Positions 30,210 through 30,870 of a stretch of DNA of 64,000 nt are shown here, one piece after another. Each line of letters begins with the position of its first letter. Position 1 is the first letter of the stretch. The notes beneath the pieces were generated by a model that searched no databases, had not been told where the DNA came from, and was given only the letters and a program-made list of their open reading frames with translations. The stretch is from Gammaproteobacteria bacterium (lineage in GTDB: Bacteria; Pseudomonadota; Gammaproteobacteria; CBDBBL01), in the NCBI GenBank assembly GCA_965203125.1, contig CBDBBL010000018.1, positions 162,885-226,884 of the forward strand. The letters are read 5' to 3'. Both the position numbers and the translations under genes were made by a program.

Positions 30210-30870
30210 AGAATTTGGGTGAAAGAATCATACATCTATTCTTTCACCAGCTTGAATACCACCTATTAGATCGTGTAGGTGATGGCGACGTTTCAGCCCA
30301 TAGATACGATTTAATCGGTTCGTGTTCCTCAACCTTCCAATACTCAGCCTAGAGATGCATCTTGGCGTAACGATCTCGCCTCACATCCCGTTTCCCACGG
30401 GCTCCGTCACTCTGCTAATGCACAGCAGGTCACCGCCGCTTCGGCTCACACAATCCTCATGACAGGATTCAGGCGCTCATTTTTTTACTCCTTAGTTTGA
30501 TGAGTGCATTCCAAGCATGCTCAAGCTTCGGCAGCTTCTTCCTTGATGTCTCCAAAGGCTGGGCGCACTGTACGTCTCATCCATTCACCAACTTTTGCCA
30601 ACTTGCTTTTTGCGTTTGCGAAATTCAGCTTCTAATTGCGGTGCGTATTTCACGACCCATCTTTGAATTGTTGAGTGATCTGGTGTGGCTCCTCGCTCTG
30701 AAAGCAGTTTCTCTACATCTCTATAGTTCAACGAGTATGCTACATACCAGCGCACTGCACATAACGCCATATCTTTTGGATAATGTCTTCCCGCAAAGTC
30801 GCTTGCCATCTGCTCACTCCTGCGATTTTACACCCAGTTTAACACATCATCTTCCGTTTGCGACAGAACC
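30210..30870 (-). mobile_element. Truncated second copy of the IS6 element with the first ~360 nt of the same group II intron
   Basis: IS6 IR (reverse complement at 30857-30870), transposase exon 1 (ORF 30585-30809), and the same exon-intron junction (ATGGATGAGACGTACA|GTGCGCCCAGCC), then intron sequence collinear with 12245 to about 12607, ending abruptly next to MITE copy B. Confidence 0.75.

Follow-up and report, generated by a model that had tools for sequence, protein, structure and literature searches.

The 64,000-nucleotide stretch of gammaproteobacterial DNA analysed here (hereafter the window) carries two copies of an IS6-family insertion sequence, each with a group II intron at the same point of its transposase gene. 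One copy is intact and the other is truncated, and they lie in opposite orientation with 15.2 kb of DNA between them. The locus raises the question of how the second copy acquired its intron. In an earlier, sequence-only reading it was proposed that the insertion sequence had transposed with the intron already in place, such that the two would have travelled together to both positions; alternatively, the intron may have entered two separate insertion sequences independently.

The intact copy (copy 1; 11943-15030, plus strand) is an 808-bp IS6-family element split by a 2280-nt group II intron, and it served as the reference for all comparisons. Its terminal inverted repeats are 14 bp long: GGTTCTGTCGCAAA begins at 11943, and the reverse complement of this sequence closes the element at 15030. 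No target-site duplication was found at this copy, which is flanked by GTAAAAAT and TAATATAG; IS6-family copies without a target duplication are common. Direct reading places exon 1 at 12004-12244 (plus strand), ending in ...WRMDETY and the first nucleotide of an isoleucine codon. The intron follows at 12245-14524 (plus strand), running from GTGCG to CTAC. Its domains V-VI were matched by the Rfam model RF00029 at 14438-14524 (63.7 bits against a gathering score of 40), and the Rfam models for domains I-IV gave no matches up to E=1. It encodes a 508-aa protein (12908-14434, plus strand) with a reverse transcriptase domain (RVT_1, 6.5e-38) containing the YADD motif and a maturase domain (GIIM, 3.7e-12), and no HNH or other endonuclease domain was matched in this protein by Pfam.

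Exon 2 of copy 1 (14525-14976, plus strand) restores the reading frame as ...DETY-I-KARGKWTYLYRAVD. Conceptual splicing yields an uninterrupted 230-aa transposase (PF13610, DDE_Tnp_IS240, 3.8e-37) that can be aligned over its full length with IS6 transposases of 229 aa, at 65-70% identity. Among 5.8 billion proteins, a set that includes assemblies of this organism, no uninterrupted close relative was found, the best intact match being 70-76% identical. Copy 1 is predicted to be the live form of the element, with a transposase that could be made only after splicing. The unspliced mRNA (12004-12321) would encode a protein of 105 aa, comprising exon 1 and 25 residues read from the intron; the N-terminal part of this product is presumably DNA-binding, and a truncated transposase of this kind could in principle act as a regulator.

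When the region from 29901 to 31200 was compared with the window by blastn, the sole paralogous match was 30205-30870 (minus strand) to 11943-12611 (plus strand), at 92.8% identity over 671 columns (E=0). A search of the window with the whole element (11900-15100) revealed no further fragments of either the insertion sequence or the intron. The blastn match and direct reading together confirmed the presence of a further copy of the intron-bearing IS6, which is truncated, inverted and diverged, as had been claimed. Its coordinates and orientation, the peptide strings that distinguish it from copy 1 and its content of approximately 360 nt of intron had also been given correctly, although a stop codon at codon 75 had been overlooked.

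This second copy, or relic, consists of 666 bp that match the first 669 nt of copy 1. It retains the left inverted repeat GGTTCTGTCGCAAA (30857-30870, minus strand), identical to that of copy 1 at 11943-11956, followed by the 5'UTR between this repeat and the ATG at 30809. Translation and alignment identified 80 codons plus 1 nt of transposase exon 1 (30569-30809, minus strand), diverged from copy 1 by 10.4% at the nucleotide level and differing in 9 of the 80 codons. One of the nine is codon 75, which reads TGA (30587-30585) where copy 1 has CGA and ends the open reading frame at 74 aa. The relic thus encodes a 74-aa truncated version of the transposase, for which a role as a regulator is possible in principle. 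The intron begins with GTGCGCCC at 30568, and the sequence around the junction matches copy 1 exactly for 18 nt into the exon and 19 nt into the intron.

Only a stump of the intron remains, corresponding to intron nt 1-363 (30209-30568, minus strand), which is 97.8% identical to 12245-12607 of copy 1 and departs from it by 7 substitutions and a 3-nt deletion in a run of A residues. The stump holds the 5' GTGCG and part of domain I, including a hairpin with a candidate exon-binding site (EBS1); nothing is left of the remainder of domain I, of domains II-VI or of the intron-encoded protein. Also missing are exon 2 and the right end of the insertion sequence, such that the left repeat is the only one present, and no domain V was matched by Rfam in the region of the relic. 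With a stop codon in its exon, and without the ribozyme core, the intron-encoded protein, exon 2 or the right IS end, the second copy is dead and has lost the capacity for splicing, homing and transposition. The same relic, with the identical TGA and the identical break, is present in an ENA contig (L002) from an independent assembly of a related strain. It is therefore not an assembly artefact, and its inactivation predates the separation of the two strains.

The relic breaks off near a MITE-like palindromic element (~30008-30183) with terminal inverted repeats TATACCC...GGGTATA, which is not part of the insertion sequence. The break had been described as lying next to a MITE; the MITE is real, but it does not abut the intron, as alignment of the MITE copies leaves a spacer of 25 nt (30184-30208) that is also present in L002. 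The family comprises four copies in the window (~30008-30183, 34370-34536, 47028-47178 and 24685-24850) of approximately 163-176 bp, which fold as a long hairpin and gave only sub-threshold Rfam matches to hairpin families, including the Wolbachia WsnRNA46. The copy beside the relic carries a 13-nt insertion in one terminal inverted repeat relative to the orthologous copy in L002.

Two possible causes of the truncation were considered and rejected. Insertion of the MITE is not supported as the cause, given the 25 nt of unrelated sequence before the break and the lack of any intron sequence beyond the MITE. Abortive target-primed reverse transcription leaves the 3' end of an intron, and it was rejected because the relic retains the 5' end and not the 3' end. 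As the piece that was kept is the 5' end of the intron, the truncation would have come after insertion, by deletion or rearrangement.

If the two copies had been produced by copying an intron-bearing IS, their IS and intron parts would be expected to have diverged to an equal extent. Between copy 1 and the relic, the IS part (11943-12244 of copy 1) differs at 38 of 302 positions (12.6%), and the intron part (12245-12611) at only 8 of 364 (2.2%), plus a 3-nt indel in the A run (Fisher p=1.2e-7). The latter count includes the first column past the break, the 7 substitutions noted above being those within nt 1-363. A similar result was obtained when the orthologous relic in L002 was compared with copy 1 (34/302 versus 8/364, p=1.5e-6). 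The change in divergence takes place at the junction itself, the nearest differences to it lying 18 nt upstream in the exon and 20 nt downstream in the intron. This inequality leaves co-transposition unsupported as the origin of the pair, contrary to the proposal that the IS had transposed with its intron in place.

The substitution pattern within the IS part gives some indication of its history. Exon 1 has a dS of 0.39-0.43 and a dN/dS of 0.07-0.10, and the non-coding inverted repeat and 5'UTR are 21% diverged (K ~0.25), compared with a K of 0.022 for the intron. These values suggest that the two IS6 elements belong to long-separated lineages, each maintained by purifying selection as a working transposase, and that the introns inside both would be approximately 10-20 times younger than the split between the insertion sequences.

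The proposal of shared travel could be upheld if a single ancestral IS6::intron composite had transposed as a unit and its copies had diverged later, with the intron conserved by selection on the ribozyme. Such a history is consistent with the identical junction, with the lack of any recorded intron-free copy of this IS6, and with the evidence, discussed below, that composite transposition probably occurs for elements of the copy-1 type. It would nevertheless have to explain a contrast between IS and intron of approximately 6-fold in raw divergence and 18-fold when measured against exon dS, together with the extensive divergence of the non-coding repeat and 5'UTR. Constraint on the ribozyme cannot explain the step, since the stump was already truncated and dead when the strains split; both the truncation and the nonsense codon are shared with L002, which implies that the stump has long been unconstrained. 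Constraint on domain I could account for a portion of the step. With an identical junction expected under homing in any case, we regard descent from one ancestral composite as very unlikely.

The distribution of the intron beyond the window provides independent information on how it reaches its targets. The exact intron-encoded protein was found on nine contigs, a one-residue variant on two more and a fragment on one, and three contigs (L001, L002 and L003) were read at the DNA level. The L003 intron (L003:6395-8674) shows 0 differences over 2280 nt, and that of L001 (L001:787-3065) differs from the 2280 nt by 2 substitutions and one missing A. In L001 and L003 this same intron interrupts two different IS3-family transposases at W-V-T-D-(T/I)-T-Y↓I (the arrow marks the intron), which is the codon position homologous to ...WRMDETY↓I in IS6. 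Both contigs contain IS256-type or rve-type sequences nearly identical to sequences of the window, which indicates that they derive from the same or closely related genomes. The window itself contains an IS256-family (Transposase_mut) fragment without its N-terminus (32607-33398) and an rve_3/HTH_32 transposase without the D-x-T-Y motif (5576-6604), near-identical copies of which are present in L001.

More distant relatives occupy the same position. Introns of E. coli in IS3/ISEc31 (66% nucleotide and 65% protein identity) lie at GAT ATT ACG TAT A↓GTGTG (DITY↓I), and the C-terminus of the intron-encoded protein in the window aligns to the end of the E. coli relative. A relative on a Halomonas plasmid, with 69.5% protein identity, lies within an IS3 element at GAT TTT ACC TAT G↓GTGTG. 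The homing position D-x-T-Y↓(I/V) is thus common to the IS6 of the window, the IS3 elements of L001 and L003, the E. coli ISEc31 and the Halomonas IS3. In the protein database, four other IS6 exon 1 products continue past DETY with SAP.. or SVPGVQ.., encoded by GTGCGCC and GTGTGCCCGG, respectively; the corresponding junction in the DNA, from DETY into GTGCG or GTGTG, was confirmed for two of these four variants (L009 and L010). Outside the window, on contigs of 194,974 and 237,752 bp, the same genome has two further relics of IS6 exon 1, each represented by a predicted protein. P0121 joins DETY, out of frame, to exon 2 sequence approximately 130 nt past the intron site, with no intron, and P0249 is a frameshifted relic of IS6 exon 1. 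The window contains no unoccupied copy of the homing-site motif GAYNNNACNTAYRT, and a metagenome scan that used the junction and the 5' end of the intron as a probe returned no match.

A candidate for the intron sequence that recognises this site is UGUAUG (12582-12587), located in the loop of a hairpin at 12568-12598. It could form six pairs, one of them G-U, with CGUACA of the IS6 exon, and five of six with CCUACA of the IS3 target. In the Halomonas intron, the homologous loop has the sequence CAUAGG, and the target of that intron is CCUAUG. We regard UGUAUG as a candidate EBS1, for which the Halomonas comparison is clean and the E. coli comparison ambiguous; no assignment was found for EBS2 and EBS3.

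The identical exon-intron junction had been taken as evidence for co-transposition. The presence of the same intron at the same codon position of two IS3-family genes removes its force, since an identical junction is what site-specific retrohoming predicts. For the same reason, the test that had been put forward against co-transposition, namely that all other IS6 copies of the genome lack the intron and that the junctions differ, does not separate it from homing.

The L001 and L003 introns also allow the differences in the stump to be placed. Over the 363 nt that these copies share with the relic, no difference separates copy 1, L002 and L003, and L001 departs from their common sequence by a single A within the same A run. 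None of the 7 substitutions of the relic is found in these copies, and neither is its 3-nt indel, apart from one base that L001 shares. At intron positions 143 and 313 the base of the relic agrees with that of the E. coli and Halomonas relatives. This outgroup state argues that the relic contains an earlier variant of the intron, and not a decayed member of the current burst.

These observations bear on a further alternative, namely that both IS6 lineages have long carried the intron and that the intron copies were homogenised by recombination or gene conversion as the IS parts diverged freely. The intron is present in multiple copies, as the contigs counted above demonstrate, and conversion between group II intron copies has been documented in Hamiltonella (PMC3522654). 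Moreover, a conversion tract originating from an IS3-borne copy would end exactly at the junction, as does the step in divergence. The almost entirely private differences of the stump are at odds with homogenisation, however, and its outgroup state at two positions indicates that it was not converted by the current intron family. This alternative also needs an extra process beyond simple homing, and overall we consider it unlikely, though less so than descent from one ancestral composite.

The interpretation that we favour, and consider probable, is that the second copy is the relic of a long-diverged IS6 iso-form into which a young group II intron homed separately, and which was truncated later. 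Under this interpretation, the IS6 of the second copy would be a different iso-form from that at 11943-15030, and, while the element was still whole, a group II intron lacking an endonuclease domain would have entered it at the canonical homing site. This site lies after the first nucleotide of the codon following D-E-T-Y, the motif with the first catalytic Asp of the DDE transposase. The identity of the two junctions would arise from pairing of the intron RNA, via the candidate EBS1 UGUAUG, with the conserved exon sequence CGUACA, and not from shared descent of a composite. The relic would then have gained its nonsense codon, and deletion or rearrangement would have removed everything beyond intron nt 363.

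Separate homing in the past does not preclude the intact element from moving as a unit, and the contig from the related strain is informative in this respect. L002 is colinear with the window from 32959 to 26271, across the relic, and its flanks are 0-6.6% diverged from the window per 500 bp, with an average of approximately 2%. It additionally carries a full IS6::intron element (L002:3881-6968) that is identical to copy 1 at 3087 of 3088 positions, the sole difference being at window position 14792. The element is flanked by a duplication of 8 bp, AAAAAAAC, as is typical of the IS6 family in length, and the window has the empty target site, with a single AAAAAAAC, at 29068-29075 (minus strand). 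In L002, 1.1 kb separates this element from the relic, and the two are directly oriented.

The most economical reading of this polymorphism is that the element inserted in L002 as a whole block, with a transposase that would have been translated from spliced mRNA. Alternatively, an intron-less IS6 may have inserted in L002 and then been homed into, which is possible. The claim that IS and intron form one mobile unit therefore holds, with probability, for elements of the copy-1 type: the L002 insertion has its duplication, no intact close relative is on record, and the intact 3.1-kb composite can probably move as one. When a genome collection was scanned with TGGYGAATGGATGAGACGTACA, the three matches (Finniella, Janthinobacterium and a gammaproteobacterial MAG) were all to unrelated intron-less IS6 elements.

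The two copies had also been described as bracketing a locus that resembles a type VI secretion system (T6SS), with the potential to invert or delete it. All T6SS genes of the window are indeed enclosed by the copies, but the 15.2 kb between them contains other genes as well: prfA, hemA and mnmG, in addition to tssG, tssF, tssA, tssB, tssC, an ORF of the size of hcp and a second tssC-like gene. The T6SS set (20275-28892) is partial, with no tssE, tssJ, tssK, tssL, tssM, clpV or vgrG found in the window. The hcp-sized ORF (171 aa) has no Pfam match, and the second tssC-like gene (27651-28892) is shorter, at 413 aa, and lies on the opposite strand. The prfA gene (15587-16681) is of some taxonomic use, as its product is 69% identical to the best non-self PrfA among the 5.8 billion proteins and 67% identical to that of the closest named organism, Candidatus Paracoxiella; this indicates that the host is a deep-branching, poorly sampled gammaproteobacterium. 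Outside the bracketed segment, the window includes a tmRNA gene (36958-37331) and, at 49046-59127, an ORF with an inverse-autotransporter beta-domain followed by very large ORFs with Ig-like repeats, of up to 1492 aa. The G+C content at 52-56 kb is approximately 52%, compared with 42% for the window.

With regard to rearrangement, inversion or deletion of the segment is no more than a possibility. The longest perfectly identical run shared by the two copies is 114 bp, and RecA-mediated inversion between them is conceivable. To this extent the earlier suggestion stands, but no evidence that an inversion has taken place was found, and L002 is colinear with the window. The plus-strand GC skew changes from approximately -0.14 (1-11942) to approximately +0.19 (15031 onward), switching exactly at copy 1, and the skew of the bracketed segment agrees with that of the DNA to its right; the pattern is unable to tell the two isomers of the 15-kb segment apart. 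The switch could mark a rearrangement breakpoint or proximity to a replication origin or terminus. mnmG (17984-19873) lies 3 kb from copy 1. No cluster of DnaA boxes was found at the switch, nor any perfect TTATCCACA in the window, and a replication origin at this point was rejected on these grounds.

The arrangement of the copies raises one more possibility, in which they are the two ends of a structure formed in a single event, either a compound transposon spanning 11943-30870 or a duplicate left by replicative inversion across 15 kb. The outward-facing ends of the unit are both left inverted repeats, in inverted orientation, and copy 1 lacks a target duplication and coincides with the skew switch, all of which would suit such an event. 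The IS parts, however, are too diverged (12.6%) to be products of a single replicative event. The 8 bp outside the outer ends, GTAAAAAT on the left and GAGCTAGT on the right, do not match either directly or as reverse complements, and no target duplication flanks the 11943-30870 unit. The agreement in skew between the segment and the DNA to its right, and the colinearity of L002 across the relic, also speak against it. We rejected an origin of this type on the basis of the unmatched flanks and the diverged IS parts, and consider it the least probable of the explanations. For annotation purposes, the relic is non-functional, and its only significance lies in 0.67 kb of inverted homology through which recombination with copy 1 would be possible in principle.

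Group II introns nested within insertion sequences have long been known, including those of E. coli, RmInt1 and those of Hamiltonella, and their relics are common (PMC3522654, PMC4181065). The closest parallel to the intron described here is E.c.I4 (IntA) of Escherichia and Shigella, which, in the passage of PMC3522654 that cites Han 2004, is described as inserting at specific positions of IS629, IS911, ISEc16 and ISEc31, its targets being conserved sites in several IS3 elements. Class A introns, including E.c.I4, have no endonuclease domain (PMC3552965). Like E.c.I4, the present intron combines a reverse transcriptase and a maturase without an endonuclease domain, inserts into DDE transposase genes after D-x-T-Y plus one nucleotide, uses several IS hosts, and occurs as near-identical copies within a strain with fragments as relics. 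It differs in sequence (65% protein and 66% nucleotide identity, the E. coli copy compared being only apparently of the E.c.I4 type), in beginning with GTGCG rather than GTGTG, and in its hosts, which here are IS6-family and IS3-family elements in a deep-branching gammaproteobacterium. By domain content, homing site and pairwise identities it appears to be a related, E.c.I4-like class A intron.

RmInt1 of Sinorhizobium meliloti, located in ISRm2011-2, offers a second comparison. It too is an endonuclease-less group II intron that homes inside an IS transposase gene and forms a nested mobile unit, truncated remnants of which are known (PMC4181065), and its splicing is thought to limit the spread of the host IS (PMC4238363, PMC3035460). 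Unlike the present intron, RmInt1 belongs to class D, resides in the IS630 family and has a target other than D-x-T-Y. As for the insertion sequence, it resembles IS26 and other members of the IS6 family in its 14-bp terminal inverted repeats starting with GG, its single DDE_Tnp_IS240 transposase of approximately 230 aa, its length of about 0.8 kb without the intron and, in the L002 insertion, its 8-bp target duplication. It is distinguished from them by a transposase gene split by a 2.28-kb intron and by an identity of no more than 76% to any intact recorded member.

What is new here is that the host element belongs to the IS6 family, that a single intron sequence occupies two IS families, and that the bacterium is far removed from the enterics; an IS6-family host is thereby added to an IS3-targeting intron lineage related to E.c.I4. 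The locus also demonstrates that an identical exon-intron junction in two IS copies is no proof of shared travel, as retrohoming produces the same appearance, and that a step in divergence at the junction is a simple test which separates co-transposition from independent homing. The polymorphism in L002, for its part, suggests that the 3.1-kb IS::intron composite inserts as a block.

We tentatively suggest, as a joint proposition that is possible but on which we place less than even weight, that this intron lineage is a cross-family parasite of transposons that reads the nucleotides encoding D-x-T-Y-(I/V), and that every surviving copy of this IS6 may by now contain the intron. Under this proposition, one intron would be able to enter IS3 and IS6 elements within a single genome by means of the D-x-T-Y-(I/V) motif, which surrounds the first catalytic Asp and is common to RNase-H-fold DDE transposases. 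If this IS6 is indeed intron-bearing only, its transposition would depend on splicing, and the 105-aa N-terminal fragment made from unspliced mRNA could inhibit transposition.
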